This document shows positions 28,646 to 36,813 of a DNA stretch of 64,000 nt, piece by piece. The stretch comes from Dehalococcoidia bacterium. GTDB lineage: Bacteria; Chloroflexota; Dehalococcoidia; UBA6926. The stretch's first letter is position 1. Each line of letters starts with the position of its first letter. The stretch is taken from the NCBI GenBank assembly GCA_034428515.1, contig DAOUHQ010000013.1:82371-146370 (forward strand), written 5' to 3'. The notes beneath the pieces are model-generated. The model was given only the letters and a program-made list of their open reading frames with translations, did not search any database and was not told where the DNA came from. The translations under genes and the position numbers were made by a program.

Positions 28646-28978
28646 TCATGATTTCATTCCCGCCGGTCCATCCACGTCCCTGGCGACAGTCACTTTGCGC
28701 TCTGTCGTTGTTGCTGTGGCGATGGGGAAGGGTTTATCGGTGGTGACGGAGATGGTGATGGACCTGACTCCGAGGTAGGCCCAGTCTCTCGTGATCAAGT
28801 TGTCCTCCGCATCGATAATCGGGCGGTCACGAAACCGCCGCCGTTATTCTCGAAGTCGCCAGGCGTGGAGCGTGAATGTCGCCGTGTGGGCCGTCGCCTC
28901 CGAAGTGGCATCCTCGGACTCTTCGACATCACGCTCTCTCGTTGTACGGGTGGTGATGAGGCAGGGGTTATCGGCCAT
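28646..28978 (-). pseudogene. Frameshifted, rearranged orphan copies of the giant protein's pre-tip segment
   Basis: Translates as ADNPCLITTRTTRER / DVEESEDATSEATAHTATFTLHA / FENNGGGFV / DNLITRDWAYLGVRSITISVTTDKPFPIATATTTERKVTV, matching giant-gene bases ~31400-31683. Confidence 0.85.
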
Positions 28979-29006
28979 AGTATTGAGCGAAAAACTTAGC
29001 AGCGTC

Positions 29007-35600: not shown

Positions 35601-36813
35601 CAGAGGAGTATTCGCCCCAATAGGAATCATATGTGCTTCCGTCACCATATGCCGCCACTCTGAAATAGTATGTCTGGTCGCATGGTGCTGAGAAATACTT
35701 CGGAGAAGGTGGGCCGCTGTCACCGACGCCCCCATGATCCTGCGGAATGAAGGGATCTGGGATCGCGAACGTTGAATCATCGTCCTCTGACGTCCCTCGC
35801 TGGATGCGATACGTAGAAGCGCCGATAACCTCGCCCCACCTCACCAAGACGATCGAAGTGCCGTGCTCAGGGGCCCGTGTCACGGTTACGCCGGTGGGGG
35901 CGAGCGGACAACTCGGTGCGCGTACCCCCGTCGAAGACCGCCCCCATTTGGCCGCGGTGTTCTCGCCATCGCCATACGCGGTCACACGGAAGTAGTACGT
36001 GATCGAACCGCATGGAGCATCAAGCGTGTCCGACGTGGCGAGATTGCCTCTACTATCCCGGGTGATGTTTTTGACTGTCGTGTAGTAGCCGCTCTTTGAG
36101 GTGCTGCGCTGGAGGCGATACTTCGCAACGTTGGAGACGGCTCTCCAACTGACCCGAACGGATGAGGGTCCGTCGGTGGACGGTCGCGTCACGGTAACAC
36201 CGCTTGGAGTTGCCGGCCTGGGCAGTGGGGTCGGAGTCGGCGTAGCTGTTGGCGGTTCAGGCGTGGGCGTAGCTGTTGGCGGTTCAGGTGTGGGCGTGTC
36301 TGGAGGTGGTTCGGGTGTGGGTGTATCTGGTTCGGGTGTGGCCGTGGGCGCATTGATCGTGACGCTCTTGGAAGCAGTATCGACTGTGGAGGTGCCCTCT
36401 CCGTCGGGAGACGTGAATAACAGCTGCGCCTCCACGCTTCCACTGCCTGCGGAACACCCATACAGAGTAACGGTTCTCGAAGCTGACGAGCTTGACGGCA
36501 CTAAACTCCAGGAGGTTCTACCTGTGCAGCCTGAGTTGCTGCCCAACTGCCCCGTCGCCTGAATCTCGACGTGATAGTAATAGTAGATCGACCCCATCCC
36601 CGATGCGCGGATCCTGTAATTGGACGAACTGCCCTCTGTGATTGATGACGCGCCGCTTATGGAAATTGACCCTGCAAGGCCTGACACTTGCGCATCAGCG
36701 CGGAACAAACCCCCCACACCTAGCAGCACGCCCGCTGCGATGAGCAGGATGACTGCCAACACGCCTAGCGCCTGAAAGGGATCCACAATCCAGAATCGTC
36801 TGCTCATCATCAT
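29629..36813 (-). CDS. Giant exported FN3-repeat protein with C-terminal phospholipase A2-like domain
   Basis: Signal/TM N-terminus (likely start 36813; the ORF is open to 36894), Pro/Thr linker, 10 Cys-containing FN3-like units, 3 canonical FN3 domains, Ig-like domains, then GCLKHDLAFGSL...NKHLSDSLFYAD...C. Confidence 0.88.
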   Translation of the reverse strand: MMMSRRFWIVDPFQALGVLAVILLIAAGVLLGVGGLFRADAQVSGLAGSISISGASSITEGSSSNYRIRASGMGSIYYYYHVEIQATGQLGSNSGCTGRTSWSLVPSSSSASRTVTLYGCSAGSGSVEAQLLFTSPDGEGTSTVDTASKSVTINAPTATPEPDTPTPEPPPDTPTPEPPTATPTPEPPTATPTPTPLPRPATPSGVTVTRPSTDGPSSVRVSWRAVSNVAKYRLQRSTSKSGYYTTVKNITRDSRGNLATSDTLDAPCGSITYYFRVTAYGDGENTAAKWGRSSTGVRAPSCPLAPTGVTVTRAPEHGTSIVLVRWGEVIGASTYRIQRGTSEDDDSTFAIPDPFIPQDHGGVGDSGPPSPKYFSAPCDQTYYFRVAAYGDGSTYDSYWGEYSSAVAAPDCPPPPAPTGVAVTRTAGTEPPDDPAEVEVSWNAFPSAARYRVGRKAEGSTYYTIVKTITEDDDGNLATSVRLDAPCGTDTFDFRVASYGDGEHYAEDWGESSTGVAAPTCPPTPGGVSVSRSATEGPTVVDVNWTHVTGASVHHVQRGTSRTDKSTFITAPRHTSQGEEGASGTATSFHYKAPCDQTYYFRIALKGNGTTYDSYWSEYSSAATAPDCPPPPAPTGVAVTRTAADEPPDNPSSVEVSWYSFSSAARYRVQRSTSRTSGYSTVETFTADDNGNLATSGTFDAPCGTAYYFRVAAYGDGETRGEAWGEYSTGIKAPTCPPAPSGISVTRSGSEGPTVVDVNWTHVSGTPTHHVQRGTSVTDESTFSDAPRHTPQNQGGASGTATSFHYKAPCDQTYYFRIALKGDGTPYDEYWGEYSSAVAAPDCPPPPAPTGVAVTRTAGSEPPDDPSEIEVSWYSFSSAARYRVQRSTSPNSGYSTVGTFTEDANGDLATSGAFDAPCGTTYYFRVAAYGDGENRGKAWGDYSDGIAAPNCPSTPSGVSVTRSATEGTTIVDVHWTHVSGAPVVYVQRGTSQTDDSAFTEAPRHTPQGEEGASGTARSDHYLAPCNQTYYFRLAVRSTGNQYWSEYSSAAAAPDCPPPPAPTGVTVTRTAGDEPPDDPSEVEVSWDAVANTSQYRVQRSTSLNGTYATISTITKDADNNLATSGTFDAPCGTTTYYFRVAAYGDGETRGESWGDPSDAVQAPTCPPTPTGVSVTRSTTEGASVVDVSWTDVTGASVHHVQRGTSATDESTFISAPRHTPQDQEGASGTAKSNNYQAPCGQTYYFRVALRGDGTTYDSHWGEYSTPVAAPACPEPPDQVDQPTLTTGHASIGVTWTAPSPGTSPIERYEVQHKVSTATSWTGAPQVTDTKTTVSSLTNGSAYEVQVRACSSDGCSDWSISATGTPRALQVSISANLDKPKPGQTVTLTAIISNPPIGASAPSYQWNTSGWWRPDSNSSTDRHLSDRPSTLTHRVRVTYSSGVTATSDLFTLRWAYPPAPPPTLRGTVQPTTMSLSWDAVSGAAKYQVQYRTSGGTWSTPTETTTTSLTVSSLTSDTMYEFRARSYGNNTTHAAEWGDWSHSLVSTTGVPPTPDLNRAYAKTATSVTFSIDRVDGVGSYQIRHRTDSVQTWTEGTEITIPATGDITHTITGLTANTGYHFSLRLRGDGTHYVKEVGGTKSWSQWSADVQESTPLVTLSISGERSPLYEGEQITLTVTADDLPTTGSYEIEVKAYGAEGGESSTTDSDLGFNSTCSDVEESEDVNAAGKTIHTATFTLHACAFENNGGGFVIATFLDSNDNVVAGDWVYLEVRPVTVSISADNPFPITTGTTAERKVTLTAGMDGPVGTTFNYYHWQTPALDDEVCTNVQNATSATHELNPTSATTKSIRVIVKENSADTDCYFSEPVYVTWNLGSTLREITDALAANFVTPTATPDPGPSGQADKLPQHRKVLLDKESALLTCTTGSSDGSFTALMTGYEVGSPLAALLETEDDPTTLDVVEGCKGDLDTAWTAIESSFSTTLTTIRTTGTNAAAIDAFLASKPGQSFITYITSQVQIKQSIQDFIVPAASILANEPAVQGNTGGNSGGNGANGQGEDQVGICLRRAGIGAADDPRKATLQQRLDTLNCLTFQTPHSFWIDLARPIVDSNANSTLLDTYKEKVVDPDDTDEQKEGMWLDGQDFECTWETDIRSFISTAIRIFLPPPNNVDLNHNAAQIAGCLKHDLAFGSLRLIDNSAAGDDPDSAWNPRNKHLSDSLFYADAVCLDKLGSERRDCLANTTEFWNSTSISWLSSEAAQRTWAVAQFNNKGWPITREHITDAAQEPRYKVCAEPLPRIDTTSLRAHIGDEYITVSWTLIPSCVNEEIDKVILTGPVLRATRNIESEVTTTPALSTKIKKPAYFSSRGVRLGHAFIFPARRVYGSHEFDQDDFHVVIVE
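33001..36216 (-). repeat. Ten tandem ~105-110-aa FN3-like coding repeats alternating types A and B
   Basis: Each unit has P.GV.VTR...V.W...QR.TS...APC...YYFR...W..YS...AP.CP. Type A carries GNLATS..DAPC; type B carries QG..GASG...APC(D/N/G)QT. Confidence 0.9.

Follow-up and report, generated by a model that had tools for sequence, protein, structure and literature searches.

We analysed a 64,000-nucleotide stretch of DNA from a Dehalococcoidia bacterium (GenBank assembly GCA_034428515.1, contig DAOUHQ010000013.1, positions 82,371 to 146,370, forward strand; hereafter the window). Within it, an integrative and conjugative element (ICE) carries a gene for a giant protein of 2,421 amino acids (aa) that ends in a conserved pre-tip region and a variable C-terminal tip, followed by a gene for a 206-aa polytopic membrane protein and by decayed copies of the pre-tip region. 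Going by sequence, we consider it probable (about 0.62) that this locus is a polymorphic toxin/immunity module, in which the tip would be toxic and the membrane protein would confer immunity. The features of the locus, in window coordinates, are as follows.

29629..36894, minus strand: giant gene, 2,421 aa; signal/anchor, stalk, conserved pre-tip and variable tip
36691..36813, minus strand: N-terminal signal/anchor; MMMSRRF, a hydrophobic stretch of 19–23 aa, then RADA/Q
33046..36210, minus strand: ten FN3-like repeats of about 108 aa each, of two alternating types (from motif periodicity in the translation)
31861..33045, minus strand: canonical FN3 and Ig-like domains, aa 1284–1678 (Pfam fn3, E value 8e-19; CRLF2-like_D2)
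31216..31860, minus strand: pre-tip 'handle', aa 1679–1893; the segment most conserved relative to locus L019
30715..31215, minus strand: all-helical subdomain, aa 1894–2060 (AlphaFold2 (AF2) model 1)
30643..30714, minus strand: Gly/Asn/Asp-rich linker, aa 2061–2084; second variability breakpoint
29968..30642, minus strand: variable tip core, aa 2085–2309; helical, about six Cys, phospholipase A2 (PLA2)-like
29632..29967, minus strand: C-terminal beta-sandwich of the tip, aa 2310–2421; FN3/Ig-like (AF2)
29007..29627, minus strand: gene for the 206-aa polytopic membrane protein, translationally coupled; candidate cognate immunity gene
28658..28990, minus strand: two fused, frameshifted handle remnants, interpreted as a scar of past cassette turnover

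A giant exported protein and its coupled membrane gene

A sequence-only reading of this DNA had described an exported repeat protein of about 2,400 aa, and both the signal and the ten FN3-like repeats were found in the open reading frame (ORF). The upper boundary given there, 36813, is an internal start (MMM, with AAAGAG upstream, giving 2,394 aa), but the ORF itself extends to 36894. With either start, hydropathy analysis finds the same single hydrophobic segment (aa 42–60, with RADA/Q after it), which would be either a Sec-type signal or an N-terminal anchor. An Ig-like domain and a Pro/Thr linker (aa 69–228) lie N-terminal of the FN3-like repeats (aa 229–1297), each of which has a conserved Cys pair. 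The whole protein contains 38 Cys, an even number that, together with a Sec signal, is consistent with an extracellular protein or enzyme. Its C-terminal ~740 aa had no match in Pfam or NCBIfam, and scans of the locus for promoters and terminators gave no signal above the expectation from shuffled sequence.

The membrane gene does start, as had been noticed, 1 nucleotide (nt) after the stop of the giant gene: a GTG lies 1 nt beyond its TAG, and an ATG 4 nt beyond it. Hydropathy peaks suggest about 4–6 transmembrane (TM) helices in the 206-aa product, which carries the motifs W[AS]PFAA and LPW[VI]YL and had no match in Pfam or NCBIfam.

A conserved handle next to a variable tip

The handle consists of a beta domain (SISGER...DVEESED...HTATFTLHAC) followed by a PKD/Ig-like domain (ADNPFPITTGTTAERKVTLTA...VYVTWNL). 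We compared it with the nearest relative of the window protein, a 2,650-aa giant at locus L019 that is followed by a 223-aa membrane gene (loci are given L numbers and proteins P numbers below). Identity between the two giants is 62–75% in the handle and far lower in the stalk (20–30%) and the tip (21–35%), with the helical subdomain at 45–48%; the handle is thus the conserved island that the sequence-only reading had predicted around ADNPFP, beside C-termini that vary. Next at L019 comes P0017, a 727-aa, 5′-truncated gene that starts inside the handle and is 84–88% identical to the L019 giant for about 100 aa, then 24–46%. P0017 is followed by its own 210-aa membrane gene and by a third, handle-only fragment of 106 aa, so that L019 shows full-length gene, orphan and remnant in their classical arrangement.

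Steps from a near-identical pre-tip to a divergent tip were found in six comparisons from different genomes (L001/L002, L005, L008, L009, L010 and L019), in which paralogues are 84–100% identical in the pre-tip and 15–50% in the tip. Five of the profiles read as follows.

P0001/P0003: pre-tip ~84–100% per 50-aa window to about aa 530; tip ~26–48%
L008 paralogues: pre-tip 92–100% over most of ~750 aa; tip 48% falling to 14%
L009 paralogues: pre-tip 92–100%; tip 16–54%
L010a/c: pre-tip 96–100%; tip 33–56%
L005 paralogues: pre-tip 84–96%; tip 23–52%

Judged from these alignments there are two breakpoints, one at the handle and one at the Gly-rich linker before the core; according to the identity profiles, the helical subdomain goes with either the handle or the tip, depending on the lineage. 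The membrane gene diverges with the tip, and the homologue test that the sequence-only reading had proposed turned out in its favour. In a comparison of 14 cognate pairs, identity in the tip is correlated with identity in the membrane gene (Spearman 0.34, Mantel p 0.009), and the corresponding relation between pre-tip and membrane gene is weaker (Spearman 0.19, p 0.07). Pairs with 87–93% identity in the pre-tip have 42–48% in the tip and 22–36% in the membrane gene.

The handle is repeated downstream of the pair in the window, three times in L019 and again in L020, and seems a likely substrate for cassette recombination. In the window, the larger remnant (28659–28930, minus strand) matches nt 5218–5492 of the giant gene (aa 1740–1831) with 75% nucleotide identity over 278 nt (E value 6e-46) and, despite frame-breaking indels, with 50% identity at the protein level (E value 4e-29); this similarity is far beyond chance. 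A second, short ADNP..ER piece, 'ADNPCLITTRTTRER', occupies 28925–28990 and is joined to the 5′ side of the larger remnant. Degenerate pre-tip copies downstream of the pair are thus real, but the 'orphan cassettes' once proposed come down to these two handle fragments: after the remnants we found neither an orphan tip nor a second membrane gene, and small helix-turn-helix (HTH) ORFs come next. Three of these, of 175, 168 and 131 aa, overlap at 27099–28295 (minus strand) and share an HTH-like segment (...SGLSWGGLARQLGVTPYRLREWRRG...); an 80-aa XRE-like HTH ORF lies beside them. All four lie between the relaxase gene and the handle remnant and are absent at the equivalent position of L020.

Base composition changes along the same axis. 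An AT-richer C-terminal part had been noted before, and the GC content of third codon positions (GC3) indeed drops from 0.87 (aa 1701–1800) to 0.64 (aa 1801–1900), with the step at aa ~1800, exactly at ADNPFP, then to about 0.50 in the tip and 0.45 in the 206-aa membrane gene. In the window, L001, L002, L019 and L020 alike, the GC content of tip and membrane gene is below that of stalk and genome. AT-rich tips are also typical of Rhs elements.

The tip family and its pairing with membrane genes

A first homologue search with the last 623 aa of the giant protein returned 11 proteins of 370–1029 aa that share the C-terminal module and have cadherin, FN3 or PKD-like N-terminal parts. A tip profile search of 1.84 billion representatives then gave 311 clusters (50% identity) at E ≤ 1e-3, 195 of them at E ≤ 1e-30, with lengths of up to 3,096 aa and the module mostly C-terminal. 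A few large proteins (L016 7551–11543; P0149, P0180 and P0216) have an inverted architecture, with the tip domain at the N-terminus or in the interior (residues 147–371 of 1,331 in one example). Across the family, stalks are of FN3, cadherin or Ig type, and some members are stalkless; the earlier description of an 'FN3-stalk family' therefore fits the window protein but not the family at large.

All 12 genome loci found among 185,579 GTDB species representatives belong to Dehalococcoidia metagenome-assembled genomes (MAGs), and as far as seen the family is restricted to this class. The locus search used a single peptide pattern, which makes 12 a lower bound; the pattern was drawn from the narrower alignment A2, alignment A1 being too divergent.

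With our own hidden Markov models for tip and membrane protein, we searched the six-frame ORFs of 18 loci. Behind long-stalk tips lies a homologue of the 206-aa gene in every case in which the next gene downstream is readable, with a single exception (the 1,711-aa gene of L008), and the spacing is often 1–4 nt or an overlap, reaching ~146 nt in L007. L001 and L007 have one pair each, L005 has two tandem pairs and L010 three, spaced by 1–4 nt; L006 has one pair and a second membrane gene; L011 and L013 have three consecutive membrane genes; and L008 has the unpaired 1,711-aa tip gene, a 1,141-aa tip gene with a membrane homologue and the start of a third tip ORF. At L009, one tip with 2.5 membrane genes precedes another pair; the extra membrane gene that lies after tip 1 shares 79% identity with the membrane gene paired with tip 2, against 30% with tip 1's own partner.

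Outside this family, P0026, an FN3-repeat protein of Acidimicrobiales, carries PF15645, which we take to be the polymorphic-toxin domain Tox-PLDMTX; other FN3 proteins listed carry LRR domains or PF05257, which we read as CHAP. FN3 stalks with other enzymatic ends may thus exist beyond the tip family described here.

A probable phospholipase A2-like tip core

The tip, about 340 aa in all with its extra beta-sandwich, was aligned in 61 sequences that are 22–51% identical to that of the window. Near-invariant positions are C2169, C2205, H2208, D2209, L2215, W2231-N-P-R-N-K2236, L2238, D2240, D2246, N2291, W2295-P2296 and P2319, and the core keeps an invariant C-x-K-H-D and N-K-x-L-x-D. The PLA2-like motif reported by the sequence-only reading is present at aa 2205–2249 (CLKHDLAFGSL ... 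WNPRNKHLSDSLFYADAVC); its assignment has sub-threshold support at the family level, and fold comparison did not confirm it. A first AF2 model (aa 1890–2421, from 12 sequences) was poor, with a predicted local distance difference test score (pLDDT) of 62. The model of aa 2085–2421 (pLDDT 82.7, predicted template modelling score 0.83) has a helical domain followed by a beta-sandwich, and places CLKHD and NKHLSD..F..D on two consecutive long antiparallel helices.

The window tip itself had no Pfam or NCBIfam hit and did not reach the gathering score of PF09056, but PF09056 was the only enzyme family to recur in the Pfam scans, in 3 of 61 tip members (best E value 0.0022). In hhalign comparisons with four solved bacterial or fungal PLA2s (1FAZ, 7YGK, 4AUP and 8K1W), the E value was 4e-4 at a probability of 35%; with a profile of 56 sequences, P values against solved PLA2s lay between 5e-5 and 2e-3. 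The alignments superpose D..C[ST], CxxHD..Y and NK..D..F..D..C, so that both Cys, the His-Asp pair and the second-helix Asp are aligned: CxKHDxx[YFW]x[SN] and NKxLxDxxFxxDxxC align with H64, D65, D85 and C96 of 1FAZ. The first motif (DxxC[ST]) is one residue longer than the DxC[ST] of Tox-PLA2. The Lipocone superfamily, considered as an alternative lipid-active fold, was dropped, the relevant terms in its paper amounting to one reference-list entry.

That C, H, D, WNPRNK, D and D stay near-invariant at 25–50% overall identity points to catalysis rather than to a binding surface. We consider a PLA2-like catalytic core in the tip probable.

Weighing the toxin/immunity reading

The locus has the structural layout by which polymorphic toxin systems are defined, except that its tips share a single fold. 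This exception is one of several points that weigh against reading the pair as toxin and immunity protein. Every tip found after a handle-type pre-tip belongs to one fold family rather than to many unrelated ones. A pre-tip/stalk query for close homologues with other tips returned mostly generic FN3 proteins, together with P0017 and P0004, which both carry the same tip type, and no close homologue of the window's own stalk with a different tip was found in that search. The enzyme assignment has its own difficulties: the family consensus matches PF09056 at E value 0.0094 and 17.0 bits against a cut-off of 29.4 (profile positions 25–97 of 110); hhalign probabilities run from 15 to 38% overall; Foldseek comparisons of both AF2 models with PDB and BFVD returned beta-sandwich matches only and no PLA2, the FN3/Ig-type matches themselves being weak (none at E ≤ 0.001); sequence profile searches of PDB with tip alignments A1 and A3 gave nothing relevant; and toxin tips do not usually have a beta-sandwich behind the enzyme core. 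Amino-acid composition could account for part of the low GC content of the membrane gene.

Short forms of 365–400 aa, consisting of an N-terminal TM segment and the tip domain, occur in L003, L014, L015, L017 and L018 (~7.5–9 kb in each). They also belong among the contrary points, being 62–83% identical, non-polymorphic, single-copy, syntenic and without a partner of the 206-aa family, which implies that the tip domain is not intrinsically a weapon. In four of the five loci they directly follow, on its downstream side, a conserved 226–256-aa membrane gene, distinct from the 206-aa family (in L018 it is ~3 kb off), and CD225-like and DUF2752 genes lie near them. From these neighbourhoods, the short form may be a housekeeping relative and possibly the origin of weaponised tips.

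One alternative is that the pair serves kin recognition or adhesion, the tip being a non-toxic binder and the membrane protein its cognate receptor on siblings, with diversification serving to tell self from non-self or to mediate homotypic adhesion. A long stalk resembling an adhesin, with FN3, cadherin or Ig domains, a terminal beta-sandwich, the co-divergence of tip and membrane protein and an enzyme not proven at the fold level would all suit such a pair. We nevertheless hold it to be unlikely: near-invariance of H-D, WNPRNK, D and D across tips that are 25–50% identical points to catalysis, the similarity to PLA2 is sub-threshold but specific, and spare membrane genes and 5′-truncated orphans are typical of toxin/immunity arsenals.

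Another is an extracellular lipase that is not antagonistic but scavenges lipids or remodels membranes, with the membrane protein in product uptake or self-protection and the variability arising from relaxed constraint and duplication. The short forms, conserved and housekeeping-like beside their conserved membrane genes, are what such a lipase would look like, but relaxed constraint does not give steps from 90–100% to 15–50% within one gene, and it leaves handle-carrying orphans and extra membrane-gene-only copies unexplained. We rate it as improbable.

The pair as cargo of a Dehalococcoidia ICE

The giant locus sits between the type IV secretion system (T4SS) and relaxase genes and the serine recombinase of one ICE, and housekeeping genes begin beyond ~45 kb of the window.

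17376..27178, plus strand: conjugation module; TrbL/VirB6, PrgI-like, VirB4, type IV coupling protein and MarR/Replic_Relax relaxase
42975..44630, plus strand: large serine recombinase on the opposite flank, the probable ICE integrase

L020, a 13-kb contig with ~75% nucleotide identity to parts of the window ICE, has in order a serine recombinase, a frameshift-fragmented giant gene, a membrane gene, a handle remnant and a relaxase; its relaxase and recombinase fragments were detectable by blastn only. Among the 20 related loci compared, tblastn at the threshold used found no homologues of the T4SS, relaxase or recombinase of the window ICE, and several tip-family loci are flanked by housekeeping genes. 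Relatives of the relaxase at 45–54% identity all come from Chloroflexi/Dehalococcoidia MAGs, and their loci had no tip, membrane gene or handle wherever the flank was long enough. Absence from distant ICEs and location among housekeeping genes together indicate accessory cargo of one ICE sub-lineage rather than a component of conjugation. A toxin-like family on a Chloroflexota ICE beside a T4SS had been proposed; the ICE setting holds for the window element and one close relative, L020, but the tip family is mostly chromosomal.

A conjugation accessory, that is, a mating-pair adhesin or envelope-breaching factor (PrgB-type-like) with the membrane protein in surface or entry exclusion, would explain the place between relaxase and integrase, shared with L020, but is very improbable given the 20 related loci in which tblastn at that threshold found no genes of the window ICE (several amid housekeeping genes), the distant ICEs of the same relaxase family that lack tip, membrane gene and handle, and tandem arrays and orphans that are unexpected for a mating adhesin.

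Other genes lie nearby. Between the giant gene and the recombinase, 37451–42768 (plus strand) encodes an ImuB-like protein (IMS), a DnaE2-type Pol III alpha subunit and an SRAP peptidase; the recombinase of L020 directly adjoins its giant gene, with no imuB–dnaE2 insert, which makes this mutagenesis/damage-tolerance cassette an insertion particular to the window ICE. Upstream of the T4SS genes, a block of 65–70% GC (4846–14039, minus strand) encodes a SNF2-like helicase, a DUF6094 methyltransferase and a DnaG-type primase, and is probably a replication/anti-restriction module of the ICE. At 655–3774 (minus strand), in a stretch of ~50% GC (1–4.5 kb) adjoining the 65–70% GC DNA, lies the gene for a 1,039-aa protein with SIR2_2, novel STAND NTPase 5 and TPR repeats, apparently an anti-phage defence gene located at the edge of the ICE or close to it.

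Proposed mechanism

Read as toxin and immunity protein, the pair could work as follows. The giant protein would be exported by Sec and probably tethered by its N-terminal hydrophobic segment, and about 20 disulfide-stabilised FN3/Ig domains would hold the C-terminal module tens of nanometres off the cell. There the Cys-rich helical core, with its His-Asp/Asp set as in secreted bacterial PLA2, would hydrolyse phospholipids of neighbours' exposed membrane, and the 206-aa polytopic protein, as cognate immunity factor, would block the tip at the producer's own membrane. Tip and immunity cassettes would be exchanged by recombination at the handle (aa ~1680–1893) and the Gly-rich linker, and the frameshifted copies of the handle behind the immunity gene would be left over from such exchange. 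On an ICE, the pair would be accessory cargo favouring carriers over non-carriers. Lipase activity, toxicity, immunity, tethering and contact dependence are what we infer here.

A more specific version is tentative, and we think it possible but less than even: a contact weapon free of any secretion machine, in which a Sec-exported, tethered FN3 'spear' with a PLA2-like tip acts on the cytoplasmic membranes of neighbours, the pair serving as a greenbeard or addiction module on the ICE. Dehalococcoides is not known to have a peptidoglycan wall, and a spear reaching the cytoplasmic membrane would be feasible if the organisms studied here also lack one. Should this hold, the polytopic family would be the first immunity assigned to a PLA2-type polymorphic toxin, and the ICE-borne pair would remove ICE-free siblings and promote spread of the element.

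Dehalococcoidia abound in subsurface and marine habitats and play an important part in dehalogenation. The tip family, with at least 311 clusters (50% identity) and no Pfam or NCBIfam model, would give them a polymorphic toxin arsenal, and would supply both a candidate immunity family for Tox-PLA2-type tips and an example of an ICE-borne module.

Comparison with known systems

Like Rhs, CdiA and MafB, the system combines a conserved body with a sharply bounded variable C-terminus of lower GC content and a gene in the immunity position directly downstream, and its 5′-truncated orphans (here in L019) keep a conserved stretch for recombination. Unlike them, it has no YD/RHS repeats, TPS/FHA/VENN domains or MafB N-domain (Pfam found only fn3-type families) and no partner of type V, type VI (T6SS) or type VII (T7SS) secretion systems, and the window has handle remnants only. 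Classical polymorphic toxins have many unrelated tip folds, whereas here a single fold varies in sequence.

T6SS Tle/Tli pairs and T7SS lipase effectors are phospholipid-targeting antibacterial enzymes with envelope immunity encoded by an adjacent gene; the enzymes are alpha/beta-hydrolases or other lipases, and the immunity proteins are lipoproteins or periplasmic. The pair described here differs from them in having no dedicated secretion machine, a PLA2-like core and a polytopic candidate immunity protein. A T7SS lipase toxin is the subject of one report (PMC10730906).

With secreted PLA2 (Streptomyces violaceoruber, 1FAZ/1KP4; PF09056) the tip shares an antiparallel helix pair carrying C-x-x-H-D and then N-K-x-x-x-D-x-x-F-x-x-D-x-x-C, and its Cys align with the disulfide Cys of solved secreted PLA2s. 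It differs in a core about twice as large with other flanking helices, in sequence similarity below threshold and in not being recovered by Foldseek.

Tox-PLA2 was defined by DxC[ST], CxxHxxxYxN and C, with Sec export and RHS or ALF stalks (Zhang et al. 2012, PMC3482391); in that survey its immunity protein is entered as '-', and Chloroflexi are among the listed phyla. In our literature search, Tox-PLA2 was mentioned only in this 2012 survey (PMC3482391), and no paper joined Dehalococcoidia with polymorphic toxins, so interbacterial antagonism in this class appears little studied. Like Tox-PLA2 polymorphic toxins, the window protein would be Sec-exported and has a filamentous N-terminal part and a C-terminal PLA2-type module, with DxxC[ST], CxKHDxx[YFW]x[SN] and C in place of DxC[ST], CxxHxxxYxN and C. 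Unlike them, the family has FN3, cadherin or Ig stalks instead of RHS or ALF repeats; a polytopic membrane protein is linked to its long-stalk tips, where the survey lists no immunity; and its tip, at ~340 aa, includes an extra beta-sandwich and falls below the PF09056 threshold.

The sequence-only reading knew of no description of such a system. PLA2-type polymorphic tips have in fact been known since 2012 (PMC3482391), but the stalk, the partner and the handle are new. By its sequence features the system is not a member of the Rhs, CdiA or MafB families, and among described categories Tox-PLA2, as defined by Zhang et al., comes nearest. Its novel features are the stalk type, the Ig-like handle and a larger, divergent tip with a terminal beta-sandwich, together with the polytopic membrane partner as a candidate immunity family, the restriction to Dehalococcoidia and carriage on an ICE.

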